Shown here: positions 40,181 through 63,967 of the stretch, piece after piece | Numbering within the stretch: position 1 is the first letter of the stretch | Layout of the letters: each line of letters opens with the position of its first letter | Source: Phoronis australis | Lineage: Eukaryota > Animalia > Phoronida | Reading direction: 5' to 3' | Assembly: GCA_002633005.1 (NCBI GenBank) | Contig: NMRA01000953.1 | Location: 1 to 64,000 of the forward strand | Length of the DNA: 64,000 nucleotides | The notes under the pieces: model-generated | What the model was told of the DNA's origin: nothing | Database searches by the model: none | What the model saw: only the letters and a program-made list of their open reading frames with translations | Translations under genes and position numbers: made by a program

Positions 40181-43100
40181 CTAAATGACAACAGAAAAGT
40201 CCATTTTGTAGTAAACCCCTGACGGTTTCACGGCTGTAACCAATCCAAATATTACTCGACTAAGATTCCCAGCAATGTCTTCAGACTTCAAAGAGATTGA
40301 AGTCTCTTTAGGTTGACTTGGTTGCAACAAGTCACAAGCGCCTTGTGAGAGACCTAGACAGACCTCATACAAAAATGCGACTTCTTGGTCAAAGCAGTCT
40401 TTCCAGTTGATTACCACAGTGTCATCGATTTCTCGTATATCAGGTCCTACAAGAGGCCAGACTTGAGGTTTAAATGCATTTCGATTTAAACTGTATCCGC
40501 TTCTTTAAGTTGCTCCGCTCGTATCATACAATGCCATTCCAAAGTCGCAACCAACGTGTTACGATTCCAAGTTCAGTCTTCAAAAGTGATGCATCTTCTT
40601 CAAATTTGGGTTGCAAATAATAAGGGCTTTTGTTCAAGTCTCGGGGATGAAGAAACATTATGAAAAACAGTTATGCAGATCTAATGGAAAGTAGTCTTGA
40701 ATTTATGAAAGAGGTAAAGCAACTTTCAGTGGCCATGTCTCTAATCATCAAGCAATACAGACGTTTCGTTGTCTGTTTGACTTGTTTCTAATCAGATAAA
40801 ACCGTAGGAAAAGTTTAATGAAAGTTGGGCAAATATCTACACGTATATATCTTTGAACTTCTAACGGTCCAGAAGTGCCTAAGTGACCCATTGTTTGGAA
40901 CACGGTGATGGCTGTTGCCCGTGAAATCAAAATTCTTTCCATGACAAATATTAATGATGAAACTTTCCTGTTCTATTCCTCCTGTAGACCCATATCTTTG
41001 AGCAGCTTCCAGGTTTTCAAAGCTGCTACAAAGCTGCCTTTGTCTCAACATTAACTTTTGATTGAGACCACTTATACCTGGGAAGCTGGTCTAAACTTGT
41101 TCCCAATAACATAGAAATCACGTGGTTTCTAGGGATTGGGAAGTGGTCAGATACCTTTTCTCATATAAGTTAATTACAAATCGTTACAGAATATATGGGT
41201 AAGTGGTATAATCAAAAGTCGTGTTTTTGATGGAATGCTTGTTTGTATCATTTTTAATACATTAGAGTATTTTAGTGCCTCACGTACCTAATTTAACAAA
41301 AACGAAAACTTTTAATGTAAAACTAATAAAAACCAAGCTCGACGGTGCATTCTTTGATGTTACTCTCGCTGTCCTGTGCTCTCCATGATGTTAGTATGGA
41401 AACGGTGTTATTCACATTTGATGGAAAAACCTCGATACTGATGTTTGATATTGCAGGTGATGAGTGGTCAAGTACAGTTTCCTTTGATTGAAAATATGAC
41501 CTGACACCAGCATTATTTTATGAAATGACTGTTGCGTAGAGAGGTGAACCGTGGGGTAGGAAGCATCGTAAGTCACGTGCTGTTGTATGCCGATGTTATG
41601 AAGAGCGAAAGCCACCAGATGTCGTGCCAATGCCGACAAGATGCCTGTGGATCCCACTTTCGCGATCTTTAATATCTAAAGTGAGCTCAACAGTAAGGGG
41701 ACTTAACTGGCGAAGGTACACACTGCTACTATCTTTACTCTCTTTTGTACATTTCCGTAACGATATAGAAATTGACGTTGTATCTCCTTCTATTGACAAA
41801 ACCAATTCGTACACGGCAGTGTTTTCGACACAAAACCTGAAGCTTGCTACGGACCTTTCGGTAAAGTATAGTTCTTTTCGCGAATCTAAGAATAACATGA
41901 ATGCTTGAACTTTGGTTTTGTTTGATGAGAAAATGAGCTCATACGTCTCACGAGCGTCCAGTATCAGCCTACATATATAGATCTTCTTTTTATCCACATC
42001 ATTTATCGACGTAATGTGTGAACTGTCCCCAGACCAAGCCTCACAGTTGAAACCTTCTGGAGGCGTTATGTCAATAAGGAGGGAATCTGATTGGACGTCT
42101 TCAGACACATGACCAGTTGCATCTTCTGCTTTTACATGGACGTTGTACGCCATGCTGTGCTTTAAATTCAAGTGACACAGCTCAACCGTGTCTTGATGAC
42201 CGATACAGTGTATTGTCTTATGTGCGAATGTAGATCATCAAATCCATTCCAAGATGCGTCAATGCAAGACGTGTTTGAGCTCGAATATTTACTTGAGAAA
42301 TGATTTACATTAAAGACAATGCCACTCGTGGGAGGTTTATTGTTGATAACCACTCCAACTGACGTAAAGATCGTGTATAACCCGACTTTGGTGATTGCCT
42401 TAACAGTCGTAAAATACTTCTCGCCCCTGTTTGAGTTTCAGATCAGTGGCAGTGAACGATGTTCGAGTTGTCTTCATTTTGGGCATGACGGAGTCGTCTG
42501 TTGAAAGAAATCAGAACGTGATATTGCTTTGTTATTGCCCCACTTTTGAAGGAATCAGTGAGATAATGTTTGTACTTTAACCACAAATTCTTGCGCCACA
42601 TTTATGCTAAAAATTAATTGAAAACTCGTATTTTTGTTTTTTAGGGTTACTTTCGTTGAGATTCAATGATTCCTTATTATTTTCTTGATTGCAGGCTTTA
42701 AAGCAGCAGTACAAATTACTTCAAGCCAGCAGTGGATAGAACTGATAATTTAACCACCCGGCATCATCAAATACCCATCACTTCAAAGAAAATTAAAACA
42801 CTTATAAATGATTAATGTCATTATCATCAAGTGAGTAAAACAACAATTTTTTATTTACATCCACGAATTTAAAACACGGTGTGAGTTTTGGCAGGCGTAA
42901 AATATTACCAATGTACTTTATAAACATTTCAACTCAGTGTATGTTTGCCTTATTTCACTTATAATTTAAATGTATTTTTTTTAAAGTGTGCGGGTTTCCT
43001 CGGACAACCGATTACGTGTGATGCTGTCGAGTAAGTACCACTGTCACCCACTACATCCAACATTTAAGCAGGTGTTGCAACACCAAAAATAAACAGTGAA

Positions 43101-46223: not shown

Positions 46224-46942
46224 CATTGTGACGTAAACTACCAAAGAGTTTGTGTTTGCGCCAACGTGTTGCCGGAGTTCTCTCATGAGACAGTATAAAC
46301 CGTTCATACTATCAAGGTACTACCATCGGAAACTAAGTCCGTAGCTGGTCGCATAGAAATCGGTAGACACGCATCCTTCGTTTACATGTTATAATAATTA
46401 AGATAATCAAAAGTATTTGTCGGTAACCGGCTGATGAGCGCCCAAGGTACGATATGAATGGAATCTGTATTAGGACATCCTAGAAAGAGTCAACAATGGT
46501 AGCGTCCCATAGGTGATATCCATGCGACGCGCTTAGTCCTACGCTCGCAGCATGGATGTAACAATTTAAAGAATGCCTTGCANCATTGTGACGTAAACTA
46601 CCAAAGAGTTTGTGTTTGCGCCAACGTGTTGCCGGAGTTCTCTCATGACACAGTATAAACCGTTCATACTATCAACGTACTACCATCGGAAACTAAGTCC
46701 GTAGCTGGTCGCATAGAAATCGGTAGACACGCATCCTTCGTTTACATGTTATAATAATTAAGATAATCAAAAGTATTTGTCGGTAACCGGCTGATGAGCG
46801 CCCAAGGTACGATATGAATGGAATCTGTATTAGGACATCCTAGAAAGAGTCAACAATGGTAGCGTCCCATAGGTGATATCCATGCGACGCGCTTAGTCCT
46901 ACGCTCGCAGCATGGATGTAACAATTTAAAGAATGCCTTGCA
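46224..46942. repeat. Direct duplication of 359 bp separated by a single N (probable assembly artefact)
   Basis: 46224-46582 equals 46584-46942 except for two substitutions that I could see (catgaga/catgaca; caaggtac/caacgtac). The n is at 46583. Confidence 0.9.
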
Positions 46943-47433: not shown

Positions 47434-47706
47434 TCAGTTTTTAGTAAGCCATGTCATTTCCCAGTTGTGCACGTCAGCCATTCGTTTGTTTCTGACTTCC
47501 GAGAGCTCGACACTTCGACGAAGCCTATGCTTAGCTATTCTAACGACACTGAATGGCGCAATGGAAACTCTACTCCATCTTGGACACTCCCCGGTTGCCC
47601 AGAATTCAGTCGTTCTGGACAGGTTATCTTGTATTTTTTCCTTGTTGACGTTCTCACTGACATGTATTGTGACGAATGAAATGTTTTGGTTGAAAACCAG
47701 CAGAAT
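47434..47706 (-). CDS. Terminal exon of Hedge/MBL/M15 gene
   Basis: cttcag|ATT. Translates ILLVFNQNISFVTIHV...CPRWSRVSIAPF...RLRRS...WEMTWLTKN*. Confidence 0.8.
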   Translation of the reverse strand: MLLVFNQNISFVTIHVSENVNKEKIQDNLSRTTEFWATGECPRWSRVSIAPFSVVRIAKHRLRRSVELSEVRNKRMADVHNWEMTWLTKN

Positions 47707-50700
47707 CTGAAGTGAAACAATATAACACAGCGCTATTAATTTTATTCCAAAAACATAGTGATATTCATCAAAGATTCTTGAGGAAAATTGCGATGTCACG
47801 CTTCAAAAGGTAACCAAAATTCCACGGATTGATACAATAATGAATAATTTTTGTGTGGATAACTATCGAAGTCAGATTCGTGCGATTGAATAACAAATGT
47901 GTAAAACGAAACACACAGAATTACCTTAAGAACATTTCTTAGGGCAGAAAAGTCTCGATCTTTTTCGATGTAGACATTGACTTCACCAACAGCACTCATG
48001 GCTAGAAACTGCTCGAGCAAGTTTAGTGACGGGTTCGGGTTGTCTCGACTGTCATAAATCATCTCTTCAATACTTGCACCAGTCTTCGGCTTGTACCTCG
48101 TCATTAACAGTTCCTCTGAAATAAGCGGTCACAGGTACAGACTGATTCCTTAGGATTTTAAACATATGTAATAGTATGACTGTGCTTACTTTTAATAGTT
48201 GTTAATTTATTGGAAAAAATCCTTGGTAACGAAGTTACGTGTACACAGTTACCTTAACGATGTTCATCACGGTATGCAAACATACATGTACATGGACATG
48301 TGCATGGTGTTGTACGAACAGTGTTGTTTCTAAGAGAGCAAAAATTCTGACAAAATACTTTGTATATACATGCATATACAATGAGTTCCTCAGAATGAAA
48401 TTGACATAATTTTCGAGACTCTGACTAACTTGGCGTTTTTCTCATCAGCCTTTAATTGACAGCTTAGCAATTGTAATAAACCGACACATTTTCGAATTTC
48501 AGTCACACTTTACTTTGAACTATAGCTATTTTTTGTAATGGAACTTCCAAGGCCAAATGTGTTACCGCGATTTTGACAAAGTGCACGTGGCCTCTTTTGT
48601 CAAGATTTTGTTGAGAATTTGTGGGAATTGAAACGTGATCTAATCGAAAAGAAATGAATATTCGATATTGAGCGACGAAACTTAAACAGACGAATTTCGA
48701 TGATCTATGGTTTGGTTTGAAAACTGGTGTTGGCTGCTATGCAACAAGACGACACCGCATGCTTTTCACGTCACTAAGGTATAATTCACTTATCAGACAA
48801 GACTCTAAAGTACACAATTTAAAAGAACACAATCAATTTCTAAACATCCAGAATACCTACTTAGAAACGAGTATATCTGCGTGTTTTCCAAGCATAGCGA
48901 AGTGTCACATGCCAGAGAATGGACGCTTGAGTTCGTGTTCGCTGAATTAAAGAAACTCGTCTTCTCCACGTTTCCAAAAGGAATGCTGGCCTTTGCAACA
49001 AAGTTGGACAGAAACTTCAAGCAAGATGCAACTTTTTTCTCCCATATTTTGCCTAAAATAGAAGGAGCGATTACTCTCTACCATAAAGTTTCCGGTGAGC
49101 TAACCTGTGGCGTTGCTTTACGCTTAACGAGGCCTGTGCCCGAATGTATGAAACAGTCCCAAATAGGGACTAAGTTCCCAAATCTTTTGCGTATTTGTTT
49201 CGCTCTATACTCTTAGGCGTATAGTTTTTATGGCATTATCTTGAGCTCTTTTTTGACTAATGACATCTTCCAATAATATATATATAACTGAAAACACCCA
49301 TAATTCAGTTAAAATAATTAGAAAGTTAGTCCTTAAACTACAGGCGTTGCATAAAAAGATCCATAATAATCATATTTTAATATTCTTAAAAGAATTCAAC
49401 GTGGAGTTCACTTTCGGTTTTTTATCAAAGTCAACAATTGACTTAGTAATATGACTCAAACAGCATAAGAGGGGACAATCAGTATTTTCACAAGCCAACA
49501 AATGCGCTTTAGATTAAGAGAACTTAGTTGAGTCCCTATTTGAGACAGTTTCATGCAACCGGCCACTGGAGCGCGAAAAACAGGCGAACTTGCATTACAT
49601 ACATGTATCCACGGTTTCTTCGTACAGATTTTTGAATTGCTATTGACAACAAAGGATTAATCTTCTATTTTTAAATTTCAAAAAAAAAACAATCTGGCAA
49701 TTTCTCGTCACTTCGTCGGTTTTTCTCCCACAAGACGTAGCCGTATCACATTTCCCTTATACGGGAAATGCGACCTTTTGCCTTTGATGTAAACTAGACA
49801 ATGGCGATTTCAAGAAGTAGCCACACTCCGATAAAGAGGCAATTAAGATATAGTGTATGTCCTAACTGTTTAAAGTTATTTATAAAGGTTTCGTACAGTA
49901 GTATTCAAATATAGCCTAGAATCCTTTTTGGGAAATCGCTTGCTTCAGTGCCTTGCCTCGTACTATGCTGTCGACATCAGATTTGAATTTCAATGACGCA
50001 TGATACTCTTCTGTTAACAGCCATTTTTTCAGTCAACAGTTTGTCAAATATCTGCGTTTATCTTCAATGGGAGAATATTGTGGTGAGCGTACATGTATTT
50101 GAAAAATCTCCTCAGTGGATAAAAGTGAATGACTCTGTATTAGGTGTTGCGAGATGGCGCTTGGGTCAGGAATTGCTTAAAAAATATTTTGACGAGCTTT
50201 TGCGTTGCAGGCTTCTTTAGAAGCGGAGCAATATGATGAAAGCTCGAAGGTCACCGTTTAATAATAAATGTTATGCAGTATATAGAGCCACCATTGCAGT
50301 GAATATCGTCTCCTCTATTCGAGACCAGGCATCGCCGGCCAAAACACCACAGGAGTAACCAAATCACGTAAACTCATCAAAGCCACAAGATGTGAGTGGT
50401 CACTCATGACTACATGTAGTTTGAGGACTCAATTCTAAAGAAACCATGATTAATAAAAACACAAGAAAATCAAAACAAAGATTCACCGAATCCGAGGCCG
50501 GGTCCGCAGTTGGTGACAAAACATTCTTTCAAATATTTTTCTGTCGAGTAGAGCTGGTTGCCTTTGTTTTTCAAATTATCCTTCAACTTAACCACGCCTT
50601 GATTTCGATCCTTGAGAGTTTCTTTACAGAAGTCGATCCTTTTCGAAAATGCTAATCTGAAATTTTTTCAAAGAACAGAAAAAGACTGAGTAGATGAAAT

Positions 50701-53700
50701 TGAGACTGCTGCATAGAACAATGCTTTACAATGTATCTAAGTTTAAACCTCTATCTTATTGTTTTACAGGAATGTAAATATGTGAAAATAGATTTTTGGA
50801 TAAAAGAACGTCCCAATCCGTGATTATCTGACGCCATACAGAACGATTTGAAATCATTGTCGGTACTTCCATTTATTCCAAAGTGAAACAGTTTGATAAA
50901 AACTAACATAATACACAGCAATTAAGAAGAATCTTAAATACAGTCATAAAAACTTTGTGATGTATTTCAGGAAACATCAGTGGGAGTAATACAACGGCGA
51001 TCATTTTTAAAATGTTACTTCTTCTTGCTGAATGGCTGTGAAATGAAGTAAAACTTCTGTCCATATTTTGGTTCCTTGCAAGCTCTGCCATCATTGACAG
51101 GGTCAATGAGAGATCCACCTAAAATAGTCGTGATTCGTAGTTAAAGAGGTAGACGTAATATATGTGTTAATGCTATTAAAGCGGTTAGGATTGTGATGGT
51201 ACATCTTTAAGAGGACAGGCAATGTCATCCATCCCGTCTTACTGTAGAAACAAATCTATTCAAATGAGCTTGTGGTGACAAGTATGGGCTTCGTTTGAAC
51301 AAAGAAACCCATGCACCTCAGTCACGACATGTGTTTATTAACAGTATTTCAACGATACCCCCACGTTAATAATCGTGCATGTAGCTCACGTGAAATGAAA
51401 AAGATGGCGCAACCCTAGTGTTTTGTGGACCTTTTCATTGAGCAGCGAACCCCATCGCCCATCCAAGACGATTCCAATCTACACTAACTTGGTGATAGAC
51501 ACCTTGTATTAAATGTTAAGTAGAACGCAGAAACATGATACCTGCGCTCAACTACTTCTCATAGTTGCTCTTATGATGCATGTGCGGTGAATCGGGACAG
51601 TAAACTTTAAAACATATCCAAGAGAATTGGTAACATGTACCTTTGGTGAAAGTGACACCAACAACTCACGGCATCCCTAATGAAGCAGTGTATATGCCAC
51701 CTCAGTGTACTGTACTTAGCCGAGTTTTACTTAAAGTGTATTAAAAGTAGGCTATAATAGATGGATACGGTGGAATAAATCACATATGTTGCATCTTAGA
51801 AACAAGTGGAACAATACCTTTGTTTACAACACTAGCAAACGACTCCAGGTTCTTAAACCATGGCGTTGCTTCTGCTTCCCACACCTTCATCCGTGCAGCA
51901 TTATCAACCAGTGGCTGAGGACTCAAATCGACGTATAGTTTGTTGCGATGTGCACCCAAACCAAGGGTCATGTGTTCAGTGTTGAATACACGCAGACAAC
52001 TACGAGCCACGACGTGGGCTAAGTCGTATAGTAGTTCAGAATTTGTAACGGACAATTCAACTGCTTGCCCGGTTTGGAAACGATACCGTTCTTCCTTATG
52101 TCGGAAGTCTATGTCTCTATTGTTTATGTATCGCGTCCGGTAGCCTGATCCTTCCAGAATGCGGAAATTTGGAAATTTACTTTTCACGATTTCGAGACAC
52201 TCCAGCAACTTGACGTCCAGTCTAAAATACCTCTTTCCAGGATAAGCGAAGTCTTCGATTAGGAAATGCTCCGACAGATGGAGCTTCCTTTGTGAACCGT
52301 CTAGAAGCTTTATGATGCGACTCTCCTCTTTCAGACGTTTAGGATATGAATATTCATGACGTACATGATCAGGCAAACCTGCTACAAAGAGCTGAGTCAA
52401 AGGGAATGAGACCAGTTCTCCGACCGCGTCTTGTTGTGGCTTTACACAAACCTCTATATCATTGTTGCCGATAACTTTAACGTAGTCGAACCCAGCGCAC
52501 TGTGCCAGCGAGGACAGTCGCGAAAGGTCACTCGATCTCCCGTTCAGTAAGCGAAGCTTCGCAGCTCTGAAAAAATTGCAGTTTGAAACAAGTTGTCGCA
52601 AGCAAATCAAGTCCTGGTGCCTAATTTTTAATTCTTTAACTCTAACTTAATTTTGGTTCAATTGTATAGGTCCAACATATGAGTTTTGTTAGTCTGTGCC
52701 CGAGCCAGTACACGACAAATGTGTAATCCTAGGTTGCACTTGACGACCCAAGCAGCTGTAATTTCTAGTCTGCGCTCAAAATCTCAAATCTGTTCTCCAA
52801 TGTGTAGCTTGAATCCAGGGCTCATCGTGTAATACCTCCGAGTAGATAGAAACATCTTCATAAATCACAACTGATTGCTCGTAACAAAAGGAAGTGTCCA
52901 TTTCTAGTTTTACAGACTCTTGCTCATCATTTTCAGAGAGTATAAGAGATAAAATTAACAACGTTTCAGTAGGCTGTAAACCCGCTTTGCAATCAGCCCA
53001 GCACCAGCAACACCGATAACCACATTATAATCCAGAAACAACGGTGTCATCCAACACTTGCCCTACCTTCCTTCTGTATATAACGTGCTTTCGGATTTAT
53101 CCACATAAGAGTTCGATGTCGGTTCTTTCCAAGCATTCTGGACTTGAAGTGTTCGGGTGTCTGCAAAGAAGCTGGTTAAGTTTCTGTATCACGCTATGTC
53201 CACAAGAACACAGCGCTTAGAAGAATGTCCGTATTAATTCTGTTGTGTATTTAATTTTTGGTGTGTACTAATTTCGATGTTGTTTACTCCGCTTACACGT
53301 ACGCAAATATGTATGTGTTCAAACTTAGCAGTGGGCTTATGGCCTTTGAGGACTTCAACAAAGTGAAAGTAAATTATGTCAAAAATGACATAATTTCTGT
53401 GTAACTTAAGATCGAAGACAAAAATTTGACTTTCTATACATAAACCAGTCTTCTCGGAATTTTCGTCATCAGTCTTAAATTAACCAGAATTTCGGTCGTA
53501 GCTTAGATAATCTTTGGTCTTCTAAGACTTAAACGCCTTAATCTTTGGTCAGTTTTCATGAAAGTAGTCCCAGATTTTATTTAATTGATAATTTTGTTGA
53601 AACACAACTATGCACTAGCAGCAAACGTATCAAAACACATCAGCTGCAGTTTTGCTACAAAATCTCCGCGGCCATTACATGGATAGTCAGTTTACCGCGC

Positions 53701-56700
53701 CCTGCAGTGCGCGGCAACACGCTGTCCAACATTTAGGTTGAGCTCTGATACGCCGTAAAACGTAACAATTTCGTAAAATGTAATGACACTTTACGTCATT
53801 GTTGCATTTCACGTTACCAGGCCTCTCCTAACATGTACAAAGTTGTTAAATTTTATGAAATTGTTACAATTTACGTCGATTGTACATGCGAGAAATATAC
53901 AATTTTTACATTTTACGAAAACGACGTCATACTCCATGGTATTTGTCTTACGGAGGAAAAGGGTTCACACCATTAACGGCTTCTTTATCGGATCGAATTT
54001 TTAGATGTGTCCTGTGCTTTCCATTGAATTTTTATCATGAATATTTTTAGTGTGGTCACAAGTGTACCCCGTACAGTTTCAACTCCAGGCGAAAGGAGTT
54101 TCCAGGATCAAGTAACAACTCTGTTACTGTTGGAGAGTTCTTGCAATCTTATGTTGACAAGTCATGAACCAATGGTGTAACCAAGAAACAATGCCTCTTG
54201 GCGCTTTCTGGGTCTGTATATTTATTGTACTGATTATTCCAAAATAAACACTCAATAAAAATGGTGCATCCGACATTACAGTAAACATTCTTCCCTTGGT
54301 AAGCACAGCAGAAGCAATGACATCGTATTTGTACATGTATATGTTACTAACGCACACGAAGAAAATTGTGGGATATTACATGTATATCGCGATAAGTAAT
54401 ATGCAAGCCAATTTAGACGAAAGGAAAAGTACGTATAGCGTGAACTACTTTTAACGAATCTTTAGTGTTAAGCGGTAACATCTGTATAAATGTCTTTTTG
54501 TTATTGTATACATGTATGATTTGCCTATTTTTTGTACGTTCTCATTGGGAATGGTGACTTACAGTATATGTCCAACTTGTGGCTGGGTAGCAATTGCTAC
54601 AGGTCAATTAATTAAATGAATATTGATTAACTGATTGATTGATATATGTCGTTGCGAATTTGTTAAAAAACTTGAACTTATAAAGTGTGTGTTTATTTCA
54701 TGTAAACTAGGAGCAGTTGTAAACAAATCAAAATATGAAACAAATTTACATGAAATTACTAATTAACAGCCTTCTGCTACTTGTACTTCTGAACTGGCAT
54801 TAGGTTGAGCAGACGATAGGAAGCAAACGTTGTTTTAAAGAAGATTAATGAAAAAAATACCTGTTAAATTTTTATAGAATCAATAAAATAATATCGTAAT
54901 ACAAAACATGTTATACCCATTATCGATTTTTGTTTGCTTTCATTGACTAAATACAACACGGTAAGGACAAAGAAGTATTTGACGTAGTAATACATATATA
55001 TCTACCATGGCAACGACTGATTTATGACTAGTTGGCCAAATAAGGGCGCTGCATTGTTTAGGTTGCGTGTTTGCGTACTTTAAACACAGTTTTCACCTTA
55101 AAGTTCATCAAGTTTGTTGAAATTAAATTTCATTTGATATTTATTTGAATGATACGTTTATGATTTGTGCTATATATTTGGTCCAGTTGTCACATGTGTT
55201 TTTCAATTATCGGAGACTCAAACACCAATGCTGTGAGTGTGAGCATTGGGTGGGGGAGTAGAGTTTAAAAAACTACCGTTACTCTTATAGGTTTAGTCCA
55301 CCAAATACATTACACCTTACGGCATTGTCAAGGATATTTTTCTAGAGATGATAAGGGTACATGTATTTGCTCTATACAAAAATACGGAAAAGTAGTTTTG
55401 TTGTATTTCACGGTGTGATAACACAGATATTTCAAATCCGTACCATCACCAATGTATGATAATGGCTAAGTTGCATTTCTTCGGGAAAAGTCTACAATAA
55501 AATGTTTCATGGCAGTTTCAATTCGGGAGCCAATTTGATAGAAAACCGTTTAGTCCTATTAGTAATACAACCAACGATACCGTGCTTTGAAGTTGCCGCA
55601 AGTCCAAGACAATTTTTAATCTCAACCTCCTCTTTTCCAAAAAGTGGGCCTATTCTGCATCCACAGCTACCAAAGTGTTTCTCACAATATCGTTAATGAG
55701 AACCCCTTTAAAATCCTTTTGAAACAGCACTCGCTGTCCTTTATGGGATGCCCGGTGAAAATATTGAACCATAAATGAGATGATTTTAAAATCTTTGAGG
55801 ACCATGATGCACTAGCACTTGCTAAGAATGTAGTTTAAATTTTGCACTAAGTCCTCGTTCGAAAATGTTAATACTAATAATAACAGTAATAATGATAATG
55901 ATTAGTCAAATTTATGCCGCGTCAACATGGAGGATTTTTCTGTAGAAAAGGCATACAAAAAGGGCCGACCAAAAGAGTGTTTTTTCATAGCATATAATAC
56001 TTTCCAAAATAGTGCCATTTTCGACAAAATGCTATCTCAAATGGTGCCTTTTCTGAATTTCTGGAATTTTTACATAAAATTACTGACTCGATAAATGGGC
56101 AATTTTTTGTCCGAGCCCATTCTCTAAATGAGTAGGTATCCAAATATTCGCCCAAAAATGCTCGAGTACTCCTGACCGTAGTTTTGGTCATTTTCCTTGT
56201 GATATGACGTTGGTTTCGTAAACTGTGTCAATGATACATTTCTCGAACGCGGATTCGACGTAAAATGCAACATGTAAGCAAAATGTAACAACTTGCTCCA
56301 TTTTAGAAGAGTCTTAGCAACGTTCAGTGTAACAATGACGTAAAATGTAACAGTTGTTACATTTACGAAATTATTACATTTTATGGCGTATGAGAGCTCA
56401 AATGATCAGTCACAACATACGTATGGATTATAGCGATAAGATTTAGTAACGGAAAAATTCCGCGATGACGAATCTTTATTTCACTATAGAAGTGTCAGTA
56501 CGTTCGATATTTAGGTCTCCTAAATGTAAAAAGATAAACCTCTCCATTCTTGACCAGTCAGGAATGCAAGCCGCCTCAAACGAAAAGCCAGCCGGAAGGA
56601 CATCATTCTGTCAGCACATCTCTCCATGTTGTCATCATCTTCGTCTGCATTTCTGCAGTCCGGACACGGTGCACCTTCAACGCCACACCATTTGCTTGTT

Positions 56701-59700
56701 GCTTCTCCATTAGCAAACGAAACGTCATTCATGTAGTAATAGAAAAGCCTAGCAACATAGAAGTTAAATTACTTTGTATGCGTCAATTTCTTTGTGATGG
56801 TATCGCATGCATACACAGTCACAGGCATTTCGAAGGTTACTGGTTACGCGAGCTGGAAGGGTAGGTGAAAAGTGTTTGTGCAGCTATGACTTATTCTTAA
56901 TCGTCTTCTTCAGTTGAGCAGTTGACCAGCTTCCAGTTTGGTTACTGCTTTGATGTTTCACGGAAAAAATAACACCAAGTGTCACTGTTTTAACCTTTGA
57001 AATTTTATCTTTTGAGGTAGTGATATAAAATTTATGTTATACATTTGCTTTGAAAACCATTTTTAAGGCGGATGTGTATTGAATTCGAGTTTTAAAAAAT
57101 GTCAGAGCCCAAGATTCAGAGTGCTTATCTCTACACTGTCTATACTGTGGATCCTTTTGTTCAGCCTATTATTTTTAGTCTTATTTGGTTATGAATTGAC
57201 CATAGACTATTTATTCATGATATTTTGTTCCATTGCCACGGTGCAAAATTGTGAAGAAGTACAAGCAACAATACGACAGACACAATGAAAGGATGGGTGC
57301 ATTCAGCAACATACGGGACGGCACTAGATTACAGGTCTTCTTCCACTGCTCGTGAGCTTACTACTGTATTCAAGTTTCTGAATTTTAGGCAGGTTTGGTG
57401 ATGACTATACAAACCCCAGTCTCTACTTATAAGTAGAGACGGTGGCAATGCCATGAGGCGTTCCTACGGGGGAAGCTTTTCGCTGAATTATGCCTCTGAC
57501 TCATTAAACGATTGAAGTCACGTTGCTATTTTTTCATTTTGTGCATAGAGGGAGACATTAGGAGGTCGTCCTTCCAACTTGAACCAATACTGCCGCAATT
57601 AAACTTTTTGGAGCAGTCATTCGTCCAGTTGCCCAAAACGGCAGCTAGCCATTTTTACACTCCTCGCGACAAGATAAATAACGTCATACGGCTACATCTC
57701 AGCAAAAATACTTAGGAGGAAACCTCCATGCATTAGTTGTTTAGCGTGTATTGTACAGTTCTCAACTAAGGAAATGAAATTGCAACACACAATGCAATGA
57801 GAATTTGAAAATTGAACCTTTCTGATCAAATTTGAGAAAATGTTGTCCTAAACGCCATGTAATAATTTGAATAACATACATGTATTTAGCATGTGATTTG
57901 TTGAAATATTTGACTGTCAAAGGTTACTGCAGTTGTGACTTTTTTCCGTTCACAATTTGTGAGAATACATGAACTACTTGTAATTCGATAACACAGAAAT
58001 TACGAGAGTTAATATATTTTTACTAGCATAACAACAATTGCTTCCTTTCTCGGAATAACAGCTAACATACAATTGCGCAAAATCACCCTCAAGTCATCCT
58101 TATACTAATTGCATACAAGCTGCATCGAATAGTACCTGTGAAACCTTTCATCGTCTCTTGTGATTGGAGCAGCTATTGGAAGACAAACGTCATCCATCGA
58201 CCATTCTGCATCGGTAGACTTCCCTTCACTTAATTCAGGAAATCTATCACCACACCAGCTTAGACTTGGAAAATCACCTGCCGAAAATAAAAACCGCTTA
58301 GAATCCATTTTGCTTTTAAACTTTCCCAAGATAACATCAAAGTTTATCAAAATTAACGTGCCTACCGCCACACAACTGTGTTTGACGGCATTGCCACAAC
58401 GAACTGACTTTCTTCAAATTCCAGATTAGTGCAGTGCTAAATTTGTGTTTTTAAAGGATGCTGTTCTGAATCAGTAAAGAAGTGGTACAAAATTGAACTT
58501 ACGACCAGTGAAAACAGGCTTCACGTCCACTTTTTTCGTTGAATAATCAACATCTATTGTCACAAGGTTCACGGCATTCTCGTTTTGCTTGTGTGTGTAT
58601 AATGCCCCGCTGCTACCAGTCATAACAAATTTTCCAGAGGAATTTCCACAGAGGGCAGTTGGTTGAGTCCTGAATCGAGCATCAGAAGAACTTGCCTTAA
58701 GTAAGTTTTCTGAATCTAAGACCTCTTGTAAGACCGAGCAGGCTGGATTGCGATAAATTAAAGTAGGATCGCCGGACGTGATTACGACTTTTGGCTTAAC
58801 GGCACTCAAGAAACTGCCAGTGTTAGCTTCACTACGGTTACTACCGTGACGCCCAAGCTTGTAAACATCAGCAGTGACGTCAGTATTAAGCTTAAGCAAG
58901 TCAACTGATTGTTTTTCAGAAACATCGCCGACAAACAGCATTTTGAAATGAGCATTTATCAATTTCAAGACCAGGCCACTTTCAGAAGATTTAGATCCAA
59001 TTTGAGAAGACAAAATCTGCAACGATACTCCTGGGCACACAGCTTTCTCGGGACATTGTTGTGCTCCAAGACATCGTTGAATTTTTATATGAGTAAATCG
59101 TTGTAACGTTGAAGACATCTCTCTATTTCCAGAGGACGAATAGTACAAGTTGATGGACGGTAATTGTCCCAATACATCCGTCAACAGGTTCTTGCGACCA
59201 TCATCTGTTCCCGTCAAGAACACGTGTTTTATTCTATGAACATTCTCTTTTCCCATAAACGTAGAAACATGGGAGCTTTGCCAGAAACCTTTATCTGAAG
59301 ACGATCGGGAGCCCATATCGACAAGTGTGATGTCACCGTTAGGGCACTGTATTATGGTAGCATCACCTTCGCCTACAGGGAGATCAAACACTCGCAGCTT
59401 CTTTGGTTGCGCTTTCGGCATAACTGAAATCATACCACAAAAATAAAAATATAGTGATAAGTCTGGACACGAGGACTCCTATTTCCATATTCAAACATGT
59501 ATATGTGTAAGGTAAATGCAAAAATACAATAATATTAATAAATCAAATTGGCATTGTACCAACGCTTTTTAAAAATTAATACAACTTTTCAATGACCCAT
59601 TGTTAACATTCAAAAACGCAAATCAAGGCAATGCAAATCAAATTAATAAAATTGTGTCACATCTTCTCATACTATGATTTAATATTACGTGTACATGTAC

Positions 59701-62700
59701 CCTGAAATGTACGAATACTGTCAAAACATGAACTGTGACCCATTTGATCACTGCTTACTTAATTGGGCCACTTCGTCTGGTGGAACGATATACGATCCCC
59801 CAATTCCTTCTGTCAGGACTTATATCAGTTTGATAGCATATTTTAATAATATTAAAATACTCACTACTCAAGTATCTCGTGTTTTTGGACTGAAGACTGG
59901 GTTGAACACCTACAGTTACGCCGTGTTTACTTCGTTTGACATTGCAGAAATTTGCACATGTTGCAAGATCTGATAGTTTATTCATAACGAGAGCGTGGTC
60001 TTCCGCTGAAGACGAAGACGATGTCACATCAAGGGTCACCAGACGACCTTCTGCCACCATATCAGACGGATCAAGCGGATTTTTGACGATTAGCTTACCT
60101 ACAAAATCAAATTAAGTAATTGTGGACAATCCAAGCTATTTGGTCTAGAAAATGCGGCGTGGTGTACAACATGTTAGTGATATTTTTGCTTATTCATGTA
60201 TTTGGAAGCGTGCAACAAACGACCCAGTTATTAAGAGATACTTACGATTTTCCCATCCTGTTTCTTTCCTTATAAGTTTACTAAACTTCAGAACCATAGA
60301 CGCCATGTTGGGGTGCATTGGGGGTGTGCTTGATGTGAAGACGATATTTCCTTCAGATAATGACATTAGTCTAAACAAGAAAAATACAAGTTTAAATAAT
60401 TCATTTGCAATAAGAAAAACATGTTGGTGTTTGCTGAATTTAAAAATCCCCGTGATATTTTGATCCACGTCGGTTGTAATCCTAATTTCGGAGATAGTAT
60501 TTCATCAATGATAAGGTAAAACTTATTCCAACAATCAAAACTATTGGTTGGATTGACACAACATCGAGCACAACAAAACAATTTTTCAAGATGGCAATTA
60601 CACAGCTATACATGTACTACTTACATCGTGCATGCTGAGCGACAACAGCTGTCAAAATTTTAAGAAAGAATCACGCCGAAGTGTTTTACCTGTTTTTCCC
60701 CGATTTAGTAGAGGAAGGGTTGCAAGGTTTGACTGCTTCCACAGCGCAAGTTAGCCTTTCAGCGCTAGCGAGGTACAAGGGTTTCTTCAAAAGCGAAGTT
60801 TTCGCTGTCTGCAATTCCGTCAGAATATCCCATTCCCTAAGAATATACTGAGCTGTTAATTAACGACCACACCCACCTTATTCATAATGTTTTGTTGGAC
60901 AAAAAAAACATAGTCGAAAGTATTGTCAAAACTGAAAGCTAACTTACCATAATGTTCCAATGACAGACATATTTAGTTTAGTTGGTTTCATTTCCCACAC
61001 CATGTCCAAAGTCAGATTAGCGTTGAATGTTCCAACCATCGCATATCCCATTGCTGACTGAACATCAAATTTCATCTGCACAGTGGGCTCAACTCTGAAG
61101 TAGAAAGAAGTACATGTAACATTCACGAATTCCATGATGGGTCCAATTATTCGTCAATAGAAATAACTGGTTTTTTCGTAAAATGATATTACGTGTTCTT
61201 AAAATTGTATATTGCCTCGACTAATTTGTAAACTTACCTGACTGTTAATGGTGCATTGAGCGTCATCTCAAATATTGACTCAGCCACTGTCCACTTGAAG
61301 GCTGTTTCGAACTCAACCTTAAAAGTATTTCCGATAGTATCAAAAACAGAAACGTACAGTTCACCTGACTTGATATCTCTTATGCTTGCTTATTCGACAC
61401 TCAAACAATAAGCTTTCTTTAAAGATCAAGATTTCCCACATTACGGAGGTTACAATAAAGACACATACACCATGTTTCAACAAGTTTGTGGAATTAAATA
61501 TCAATGAAATACTATGATGTAAAGGTATTCAATTACCTGCGGGAAAATACTGACAGTCCCCGACACGTCTGCTGCTTTTTCGACTACTGATTTGCTAATT
61601 GTGACAGGTGCATCGTCGCGCAAAACATCAATCTTCAACATCCGATCTGACACTTTTGTACTTGCTAGTTTCCACACGATGGTGGGAAAACAAAGTTTCA
61701 GTCAAATGGTGAAACATTCCAGTGGCGTTAAGGAATATAACATTGACTCAATGAACCAAGCAACTAACACTGCCAACAACTTTTATTTCCTTTTTGCACT
61801 CTAACCACATCGAAGCTCAACATGTAAATTCGCAAACTACGTACATACTACACCATTGCAAAGGAGAAGTAAATATCAGTACATGCATGTACATGTATTG
61901 GATGTCATGGCCGGCATTTAGTCGATCATTTGTTTTACCATTATCTCAATAAATTGAGAACTGTATCTTATGTTATGGAATAACACTACTGTATGTTAAA
62001 CGTGTACTTACTAACAGTAAATCTAGACGTTGTGTTAAATGCTGTGTCCAGAGACATTGCAGCACTTGCTTCAAATGAAGCATTTAGCCACAGCTCAGCC
62101 GTTGAAGACACCACCAGGCTCACGTCTTTACTGACTGGGATTTGAAACGTCTGGGGATTTTCTGCTCTCCATAGTTGCTGGAGGACCTCAGTGCTGAATT
62201 CTTCTTTGGTGGTGAGGGACATCGTATAACTCAAGCTTGCTTCCACATCAAACTGTAATGACACGGACACTTCATTATTGCTTCTGTTAGTATCATTTAA
62301 AAATATCATTCAAAATATTCGACTTCAAGCCTTTGATGAACTCAAAGGACAGAACTTTGTCTGAATCTGTCAAACTATGGATTATTTTGTAATTAAGTAA
62401 AACATGTCACCAATATGGGAAGGCGTCGACATTTATGCATAACTGAATCGGATACTTGACTGGTTCAAGTCACGTTGAAAACTGCTGAACACACACGTAT
62501 AATTATGAAAACGTTAGTATGGAGACTGTTATGGTTGATTGGGTTAAAAGTTTGTTCAGGGTCGGCAGCTGATTACTTACCTGTAGCATGTACTTTTCAA
62601 ACACAACCCGCTGATCCTTGTCTCGACTAATTTTTAGCTCACTGAAATATCGAATACATCAATGATACATGTAGATGAACATTGATAACCAAAGCGTATA

Positions 62701-63967
62701 ACGAATTCGAGTTTAAAATTTTCTACTTCATCATTTCCCTTATTTTGTTTTCTTTTTCCAGTCGATAAATAAATTATCTCAAGGCAAGGAAAAACAGAAT
62801 TAGATATTGGCTTGAGCTGATGGCTCTTCCATACAATTGGGTGTTAATAATTATGGTATGGGTATCAAGTGTCAGTCTTTTCACATGACGTCATTGGCCA
62901 CACCACGTGATGTACATGTTAAGTCTGACAAAATCTCTATCGCGATGTAAGATCGAACTTGGGACATTATGATAAGACGCTCTTGTCCACTAAGCTACTG
63001 GAACCACCTGCCGATTACAGAAGTCGTCCTTGTAAGAAAATTTCCAAACACTTCTTACCGTACCATATGAACGCGATGAATGACAACAGGACAATCGTAT
63101 GCATTTACATGCATCAGCAAGTTTGAGTAAGATGCCTCCTATAACGTGGATTGTATTTCTGTGGTCGACGATTGGTCCCAGTACACTGTTAGCTCAATGG
63201 CCCAGAGCTTCTGCACAATTAGCAGGAAGTCACGAGTTCGAGGCTCAGTCAGAACAGACATTTTTTCAAAATTTATTATAGGTAACGCAATAAGACCAAT
63301 AAACATGTATTTCGTGTAAGGAAATCAATAATTCTTACTGATTGGCTCTTACAATTTAGAAAACGATGTTGGACTTTGAAATGTCTTTAAGTAATAACGA
63401 TACTTTATACCGACTGTTGTAGTACATGTATGTCAATGTGACAAGCGGCCTCAACTAGTTGACAGCAGAAAAGAGGTAGCTTATGTAACACTATGAATAG
63501 GTGAAGTATTACTTACAAAGTCACTGCAGTTGCAAAATTTGCAAAACACGACGCGCAGTTTATTTCTGCTCCAGTACTGGTTCCCTTCTTTACGTCATCA
63601 TCTTGTTCTTTTTTTGCCATTCGGAGCCACTCATTCTTTTTGACATCGAATACAGCTTCTTTGCGCTTCGTTAGTCCAACAGTGAAAGCACTTCCCGCAT
63701 TACCGCTCTTGCGGTCATAGTTGATATCTTTAATGAATTTATTTGAACAGGACTTGTTCAAATATATAGGGAAAATTTCTGAGAACACGTCCGCCTTAGA
63801 AAGCTTCTGGCTTTCCGTAGACCAGCTAGACGTTGCACTTCTCTTGCTTCGATGGTATTCACTTGTCCCGGTGTGATAGAATATGTCGACATTTTCAAAC
63901 ACGTCGACGAAACTGAAATTTGTACCTTTCACTATTTTATTACTGTATATTGCAACGACACCGTCGA
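47434..63967 (-). CDS. Multidomain protein: beta-rich N-region, Hedge-like 1, ComEC-type MBL fold, Hedge 2, peptidase M15A-like, C-terminal region (5'-partial)
   Basis: Exons 63517-~63967, 62581-62641, 62012-62252, 61537-61664, 61238-61317, 60948-61094, 60690-60836, 60246-60370, 59865-60098, 59759-59809, 58503-59423, 58136-58277, 56540-56748, 53067-53160, 51818-52566, 51019-51118, 50487-50656, 48861-49052, 47925-48115, 47434-47706 (TGA). All are GT-AG with compatible phases and an open frame (~1,570 aa). Confidence 0.85.
47925..48115 (-). CDS. Exon of Hedge/MBL/M15 gene
   Basis: tttcag|AG...AAG|gtaat. Translates ELLMTRYKPK...NPNPSLNLLEQFLAMSAVGEVNVYIEKDRDFSALRNVLK. Confidence 0.82.
48861..49052 (-). 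CDS. Exon of Hedge/MBL/M15 gene
   Basis: ttttag|GC...A|gtagg. Translates KIWEKKVASCLKFL...SVHSLACDTSLCLENTQIYSFL. Confidence 0.8.
49137..49565. mobile_element. MITE, PIF/Harbinger-like (~430 bp)
   Basis: TIR of ~60 bp: tgcccgaatgtatgaaacagtcccaaatagggactaagttc versus the reverse complement tggccggttgcatgaaactgtctcaaatagggactcaactaagttc. Flanked by CTG on both sides (3-bp target-site duplication). Confidence 0.7.
50487..50656 (-). CDS. Exon of Hedge/MBL/M15 gene
   Basis: tttcag|A...G|gtgaa. Translates LAFSKRIDFCKETLKDR...YLKECFVTNCGPGLGF. Confidence 0.78.
51019..51118 (-). CDS. Exon of Hedge/MBL/M15 gene
   Basis: ttttag|GT...AA|gtaac. Translates GSLIDPVNDGRACKEPKYGQKFYFISQPFSKK. Confidence 0.7.
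51818..52566 (-). CDS. Exon: end of Hedge domain 2 plus peptidase M15A-like (LAS fold) domain
   Basis: RAAKL...LSRLSSLAQCAGFDYV...IEVCVK resembles Hh RAVDI...LARLAVEAGFDWV...IHCSVK. It is followed by LSEHFLIEDF...LDVKLLECLE...SGYRT...N...GQAVEL...LGLG...LYVDL, resembling Peptidase_M15_3. Confidence 0.88.
53067..53160 (-). CDS. Exon, Hedge domain 2 core
   Basis: ttgcag|AC...AG|gtagg. TRTLQVQNAWKEPTSNSYVDKSESTLYTEGR resembles Hh [24 protein letters not shown]. Not reported in the ORF track. Confidence 0.88.
53740..56399. mobile_element. Non-autonomous DNA transposon (~2.66 kb) with long diverged TIRs, intronic
   Basis: The left end gagctctgatacgccgtaaaacgtaacaatttcgtaaaatgtaa... matches the reverse complement of the right end, gagctctcatacgccataaaatgtaataatttcgtaaatgtaac..., with similarity extending ~190 bp. 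No transposase ORF is evident. Confidence 0.7.
56540..56748 (-). CDS. Exon, Hedge domain 2 with Cys-rich insert
   Basis: tgctag|G...G|gtttat. LFYYYMNDVSFANGE-[ATSKWCGVEGAPCPDCRNADEDDDNMERC]-ADRMMSFRLAFRLRRLAFLTGQEW resembles Hh [42 protein letters not shown]. Confidence 0.88.
58136..58277 (-). CDS. Exon, start of Hedge domain 2
   Basis: cggcag|GT...AG|gtact. APITRDDERFHR resembles Hh GKITRNSERFKE. Confidence 0.85.
58503..59423 (-). CDS. Single exon encoding a ComEC/Rec2-type metallo-beta-lactamase fold domain (degenerate active site)
   Basis: LRVFDLPVGEGDATIIQCPNGDITLVDMGS resembles the family pattern VxFLDVGQGDAxLI...LIDxG. Also SGLVLKL...KMLFVGD, DVYKLGRHGS and FLSAVKPKVVITSG. 921 bp, phase 1-1. 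Confidence 0.88.
59759..59809 (-). CDS. Micro-exon (51 bp) linker
   Basis: ctgacag|AA...A|gtaag. Translates GIGGSYIVPPDEVAQL. Phase 1-1, so it can be skipped in frame; the preceding intron is only 55 bp. Confidence 0.55.
   Translation of the reverse strand, partial: KELGDRISFHQTKWPN
59865..60098 (-). CDS. Exon, second half of degenerate Hedge-like domain 1
   Basis: ttgtag|GT...A|gtgag. KLIVKNPLDPSDMVAEGRLVTLDV...MNKLSDLATCANFCNV...VTVGVQ resembles Hh KLRV...HYEGRAVDIT...LARLAVEAGFDWV...IHCSVK. Confidence 0.78.
60246..60370 (-). CDS. Exon, first half of degenerate Hedge-like domain 1
   Basis: gtttag|A...C|gtaag. Translates LMSLSEGNIVFTSSTPPMHPNMASMVLKFSKLIRKETGWEN. Confidence 0.75.
60690..62641 (-). 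CDS. Six exons of the beta-strand-rich N-terminal region (62581-62641, 62012-62252, 61537-61664, 61238-61317, 60948-61094, 60690-60836)
   Basis: Canonical splice sites and consistent phases. The peptides alternate hydrophobic and polar residues (FDVEASLSYTMSLTT, ELWLNASFEAS, VEFETAFKWTV, FNANLTLDMVWEM). Confidence 0.78.
62950..63008 (-). mobile_element. tRNA-derived SINE-like head (decayed)
   Basis: Minus strand ggtggttccagTAGCTTAGTGGacaagagcg...caaGTTCGATC gives an A-box/B-box layout. No complete cloverleaf. Confidence 0.4.
63188..63255 (+). mobile_element. tRNA-derived SINE-like head (decayed)
   Basis: gtTAGCTCAATGGcccagagc...gtcacgaGTTCGAGGCtcagtc gives A/B boxes with imperfect stems. 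Confidence 0.4.
63517..63967 (-). CDS. Most 5' visible exon of Hedge/MBL/M15 gene (acceptor uncertain, 63967 or 63942)
   Basis: 139-aa ORF with RSKR and INCASC. The donor TT|gtaagt is phase-matched to exon 62641. Confidence 0.78.

Follow-up and report, generated by a model that had tools for sequence, protein, structure and literature searches.

Two Hedge domains, an M15A fold and a ComEC-type metallo-beta-lactamase fold, none with a full metal site, in one transcribed gene of Phoronis australis

In a stretch of 64,000 nucleotides of the Phoronis australis contig NMRA01000953.1 (hereafter the window), the interval 51818..60370 reads as a series of enzyme-derived folds lacking metal ligands. 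This raises the question of whether the locus is a decaying remnant, encodes an enzyme working through another kind of site, or encodes a protein whose folds are maintained for a non-catalytic use. The interval was found to be the middle of a spliced, transcribed animal gene on the minus strand, the chain of which combines two Hedge domains, an M15A-fold domain and a ComEC-type metallo-beta-lactamase (MBL), none of them with a full metal site.

47434..63967, minus strand: part of the whole gene inside the window, 20 modelled exons, 1543 aa (splice model, RNA joints and ortholog alignment)
60690..63967, minus strand: N-terminal region, seven exons, fold without assignment, RxxR furin-type site (family profile, E 6e-25)
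59865..60370, minus strand: Hedge domain 1, exons 60370-60246 and 60098-59865 (profile match, E 3.5e-8)
59759..59809, minus strand: predicted 51-nt linker exon, phase 1-1 (splice signals only)
58503..59423, minus strand: ComEC/Pce-type MBL fold, one symmetric phase 1-1 exon of 921 nt
59194..59196, minus strand: codon of the last His of HxDxDH in the MBL, Arg in the window and His in RNA run X1
52480..58277, minus strand: Hedge domain 2 with a Cys-rich insert, exons 58277-58136, 56748-56540, 53160-53067 and the start of 52566-51818
51876..52334, minus strand: M15A (DD-peptidase) fold domain, zinc positions F/E/Y
47434..51118, minus strand: C-terminal five exons, with a Cys-linked helical region, a conserved alpha/beta-like domain, a furin-type site and a conserved tail of ~30 aa

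The exons were modelled with GT-AG boundaries and in a single frame from 63967 to 47434. The 5' end of the gene lies beyond the window, past 64000, and about 110-150 N-terminal residues, including a signal peptide, would be expected upstream. Stranded RNA from two runs covered the exons and provided joints for at least 11 of the 19 introns, including the joint of the Hedge 1 exons (60093/60241); two joints and one loose end were listed in the N-terminal region. Transcripts cover the MBL exon, and six reads splice it to the next exon downstream; no upstream join was seen in the two runs, and no exon-skipping joint was found among the RNA joints listed for this region. Neither run had reads on the 51-nt linker exon, with or without which the reading frame is intact, and the listed differences between reads and window included no exon indels. 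Read depth, taken from a fifth of each run, was low (mostly <10). Another run, X3, gave 0 reads at 58050-60450, which is informative only if the organism is present in X3. The RNA joints, together with a frame that stays open, rule out a pseudogene or an assembly artefact. Near 57640, a putative exon with a frameshift was discarded, since the RNA joins 58135 to 56747. The 3.4-kb intron contains an inverted pair of ~200-bp elements (53738-53931 and 56203-56401).

Elsewhere on the minus strand of the window, positions 1-29149 hold a very large gene of many exons that encodes WSC, Mucin2_WxxW and two F5/8C-like domains, as well as many repeats labelled by eye as Ig/FN3-like. A broken fragment of the same kind of repeat gene, with frame changes near 42437 and 42230, lies at 40184-42500. 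A piece homologous to this fragment (48%, 44 aa, E 8e-8) is fused to the Hedge-family gene in the Batillaria model P0008, so that the repeat gene and the Hedge-family gene may adjoin in a gastropod too. A 359-bp tandem duplication with 99.4% identity, possibly an assembly artefact, was found at 46224-46942.

Three homolog searches recovered 14 proteins, including those of Nucella, Babylonia, Batillaria, Littorina, Haliotis, Mytilus and Tegillarca, and the MBL search added a Lingula protein, giving 15 relatives. Those with a named organism came from molluscs and Lingula, a taxonomic range that is a lower bound because the homolog searches were word-limited, and identity to the 3' half of the window model was about 30-36%. 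Thirteen of the 15 relatives were aligned; the two omitted were an incomplete, fused Batillaria model and a Mytilus fragment, also fused. The family proteins are large and rich in Cys (23-38 residues). By simple hydropathy, 12 of 13 orthologs have a hydrophobic N-terminus and none of the 13 a clear membrane helix; a regular-expression search placed furin-type sites close to both ends in most orthologs, with a C-terminal site in 11 of the 13 complete ends. We infer that the protein is likely secreted and likely trimmed by furin at both ends. The conserved tail (47434-47530), which carries a W-E-x-x-W motif downstream of the furin-type site, might be set free as a peptide. Conservation is highest in the C-terminal domain (0.50), followed by M15 (0.45) and the Hedge domains (0.37-0.39). 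Pfam scans gave no match for the N-terminal region, nor for six exons scanned singly.

The family orthologs match PF01085, and the family profile matches Drosophila Hh and Shh, Drosophila Hh being the top PDB match. The Hedge zinc ligands were taken as H141/D148/H183 (PMC6027127), and the corresponding window positions read V/T/T in Hedge 1, the more diverged of the two domains, and Y/K/E in Hedge 2. The M15A domain, for which weak PF05951 matches were obtained in 2 of 16 proteins scanned, has the Hedgehog/DD-peptidase fold without the H-X6-D and H-X-H ligands. The H/D/H triad was found in none of 13 orthologs in Hedge 1, none of 12 in Hedge 2 and none of 12 in M15, the nearest case being the Mytilus Hedge 1 with two His. 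Absence of the triad from both Hedge domains and from M15 of every aligned ortholog argues that its loss is, as far as alignments tell, an old and conserved trait of the family. Drosophila Hh and Hedgling likewise lack the triad (PMC6027127), and Shh is named among possible pseudopeptidases (PMC11266112); with Hedglets, dead Hedge domains are thus already in print.

The M15 pseudo-site has an invariant Arg and an invariant Gly-Gln-Ala across orthologs. Its first ligand position is mostly aromatic (F in 7, Y in 3, H in 2) and its third is Tyr in 11 of 11; such aromatics, though conserved, may do no more than plug the vacant site. The second position takes eight different residues. A Glu is retained at one ligand position in the window Hedge 2 and in M15, and a His near the M15 site is kept in 10 of 11 orthologs. 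Alternative metal sites were judged from the alignments alone.

Sequence and structure comparison grouped the window MBL with the ComEC domain and Pce. It keeps three of the nine site residues conserved in the ComEC/Pce-type family; among those tested in PMC12455585, D600, D700 and S728 are kept and H598, D602, H603 and H725 are missing, leaving the binuclear metal site and the general base incomplete. In an alignment of 75 of 150 matches, mostly single-domain proteins, the six ligands were kept in 66 of the 75 relatives. The first-pass annotation, which had described four enzyme folds without a full metal site, is thus borne out by the ligand tables. Its statement that the MBL site is lost stands for the residues named above, except that RNA from another individual encodes one of the 'lost' His residues: at 59195, a C>T change (Arg to His) was read in 4 of 4 reads of run X1 and 0 of 2 of run X2.

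The MBL is found in only one of the 15 relatives, Lingula, at the same position in the protein, and the two MBLs are sisters in a quick tree (SH-aLRT 96), inside a clade separate from the bacterial-type rows. The unrooted backbone tree also set the window and Lingula proteins apart from the other 12. In the Lingula MBL, HxDxDH is intact, as are the Asn and the bridging Asp, but QY stands in place of HH. This pattern, together with the His of X1 against the Arg of the window, suggests that the insert is shared with Lingula and old, and that its inactivation looks later and independent. The MBL would likely be a later exon-shuffled insert that was probably still active when it was gained, the site then being lost in the two lineages independently. 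The idea of four dead domains forming one design is not supported, the MBL being absent from 14 of 15 relatives and different residues being lost in Lingula. It could serve as an accessory binder, or be carried along as a tolerated passenger. Also observed were 42 ComEC-like MBLs forming one clade (SH-aLRT 100; including P0016-P0049). Most of them stand alone, and many combine a hydrophobic N-terminus with an intact site; one member, from the sponge Oopsacas minuta, is itself degenerate. This clade is possibly an undescribed family of secreted animal MBLs.

Selection was estimated from 67 listed coding differences between reads and window, obtained as 28 and 39 from two listings biased toward well-covered sites. 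The first 28 were kept from 40 of 207 rows, after 12 were dropped (10 non-coding, one duplicate and one contig-only). The 67 differences comprise 28 synonymous and 39 non-synonymous changes, giving an overall pN/pS of 0.40-0.54 (p 0.0003-0.01), and 0.33-0.45 outside the MBL (p 0.001-0.014). Among the differences listed, Hedge 2 reached 0.18-0.25; the M15 value (1.2-1.7), from just five changes, and that of Hedge 1 are uninformative. A ratio near 1 had been proposed as the sign of decay: the overall ratio lies below it, whereas that of the MBL (0.52-0.69, p 0.07-0.22) is indistinguishable from 1. The MBL is limited to a lineage and under weaker or uncertain constraint. An expressed, spliced and open frame, this overall ratio and orthologs that lack the same ligands at about 33% identity support the earlier proposal that the protein is non-catalytic and not decayed.

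The C-terminal alpha/beta-like domain resembles, by eye, the CD38/ADP-ribosyl cyclase fold, with the Trp and the catalytic Glu replaced. PDB and Pfam searches gave no match supporting an ADP-ribosyl cyclase identity, and Atlas feature searches, with best scores of 0.77 and 0.75, did not confirm it. PF02267 or the domain profile matched nothing in 3 and 401 prokaryote genomes, where no control gave a match either. An ADP-ribosyl cyclase-like fold is a possible lead; the key residues of that family were taken from PMC12605009 and PMC3482391.

We consider it highly probable that the gene encodes a non-catalytic secreted protein under selection, which most likely acts as a Hedglet-type binder or scaffold. 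Under PGRP-style logic, dead enzymes serve as sensors. The dead clefts would likely bind, without cutting, extracellular glycan-peptide polymers, whether bacterial peptidoglycan or glycans of the host matrix or mucus; peptidoglycan is the substrate of M15 enzymes, and heparan sulfate a ligand of Shh (PMC6027127, PMC8052667). This class of ligand is proposed tentatively and with some doubt, and the full reading, that of a Hedglet-type, secreted, furin-trimmed protein binding through dead clefts, is about as likely to be right as wrong. It is improbable that the family is an ancient invertebrate one whose secreted members sense microbes through a chain of disarmed bacterial-type hydrolases with a swappable slot. 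If so, the Hedgehog fold would still read peptidoglycan in animals; the slot would hold the ComEC-type MBL here and in Lingula and a VWA domain nearby in Tegillarca, and the chain would possibly include a fifth, dead ADP-ribosyl cyclase-like domain.

Large size, numerous Cys, furin-type sites and the lack of a membrane anchor would also suit a structural scaffold of matrix, mucus or shell type, in which the dead folds are rigid protein-protein modules without a substrate-like ligand. The VWA insert of Tegillarca indicates that the backbone accepts different modules, and Hedgling, the other non-Hh Hedge protein, is adhesion-like (PMC2362128). However, the M15 pseudo-site retains a specific set of invariant residues, and the low read depth, in RNA of unstated tissues, is unlike that of a bulk structural protein; we regard a scaffold as unlikely, though a serious competitor. 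Continued enzymatic activity, through a rebuilt or metal-free site in at least one domain or with the C-terminal domain as the catalytic part, would be in line with the Glu of Hedge 2 and M15, the Arg and His conserved near the M15 site, the motifs retained in the Lingula MBL and the strong conservation of the C-terminal domain. The retained acidic positions vary, however, the second M15 ligand among them, and single Ala substitutions at most metal positions of ComEC leave almost no activity (PMC12455585), four of the residues tested there being missing here. Such activity is very unlikely.

A modulator or decoy of Hedgehog signalling, binding Ihog/Cdo, Hhip or glypicans, had also been put forward. 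Drosophila Hh lacks the triad yet signals (PMC6027127), and it gives the top PDB match of the family profile; all Hedglet-bearing animals also have Hh (PMC8052667). Of the Ca ligands, the two that were scored are both present in Hedge 1 in 10 of 13 orthologs, but in Hedge 2 in only 1 of 12, and the window reads N/D in Hedge 1 and N/K in Hedge 2; the idea is weakened because neither window domain keeps both. Moreover, Patched is contacted by a free N-terminal arm (PMC8052667), which is lacking here since the Hedge domains are internal, and M15 and the C-terminal domain are conserved above the Hedge domains. A decoy is thus less likely than glycan or peptidoglycan binding, and quite improbable in itself.

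Among known systems, rusticalin-like proteins provide a precedent for bacterial peptidase-MD domains in animals (PMC6339383, PMC7379824). An immune role has been proposed for them, and rusticalin itself is predicted to be inactive, whereas the site is conserved in rusticalin-like proteins; unlike the window protein, they are small, nearest to L-Ala-D-Glu peptidases, and carry defensin-like repeats (PMC6339383). Compared with the ComEC beta-lactamase-like domain and Pce, the window MBL has its four site residues replaced and no competence channel, and its closest relatives are mostly stand-alone proteins whose N-termini are hydrophobic, one of them from a sponge. Hedgehog ligands share the PF01085 fold, and Drosophila Hh has also lost ligands (H-X6-T, H-X-Y), but the window protein has tandem internal Hedge domains, partly lost Ca ligands and no Hint domain. 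No Hint was found in the Pfam scans of orthologs, to the C-termini of which the window model aligns.

Hedgling of sponges, cnidarians and choanoflagellates is, as here, a large extracellular protein with a Hedge domain, no Hog and an incomplete zinc motif (PMC6027127, PMC2362128), but its single Hedge domain is N-terminal and followed by VWA, cadherin and EGF repeats (PMC2362128). None of these was detected in the window family, apart from the VWA domain inserted inside the Hedge 2 region of Tegillarca P0013 (residues 729-890), a possible gene-model artefact that recalls the Hedge-VWA pairing of Hedgling. Lophohog also differs from the window protein (PMC2362128, PMC9695228 on Hedgling and Lophohog).

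The closest likeness is to Hedglets, named in lophotrochozoans (including molluscs), amphioxus and echinoderms, predicted to be non-catalytic and of a distribution called enigmatic (PMC8052667). Like the window protein, they have a Hedge domain with the zinc residues lost and no Hog/Hint domain. We assigned as likely Hedglets seven amphioxus, starfish, limpet, oyster and scallop rows of an unlabelled supplement to that paper. By eye, a Cys before the AGFD-like strand is common to 7 of 7 rows and the window family, a Lys at the Asp ligand to 6 of 7 and the window Hedge 2, and EGRAAKL to 4 of 7 and the window Hedge 2. The available text treats a stretch of ~105 residues and makes no mention of a second Hedge, an M15A domain or an MBL; the published domains, at residues ~270-420 and without the Cys-rich insert, may thus be paralogs. 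The shared motifs suggest that the window protein is Hedglet-type, whether as an ortholog or as a paralog. No published description of the full architecture was found in the literature covered, which excludes subscription journals, and 'hedglet' occurred in the two versions of one paper. Hedglets, named without a function, are thereby given a full expressed architecture: in a single chain, three Hedgehog/M15-fold domains show a conserved loss of ligands, and a fourth enzyme domain is found at differing stages of inactivation between two lineages and within one species. As the domains can be expressed singly, Hedge-fold binding outside Hedgehog signalling becomes testable.
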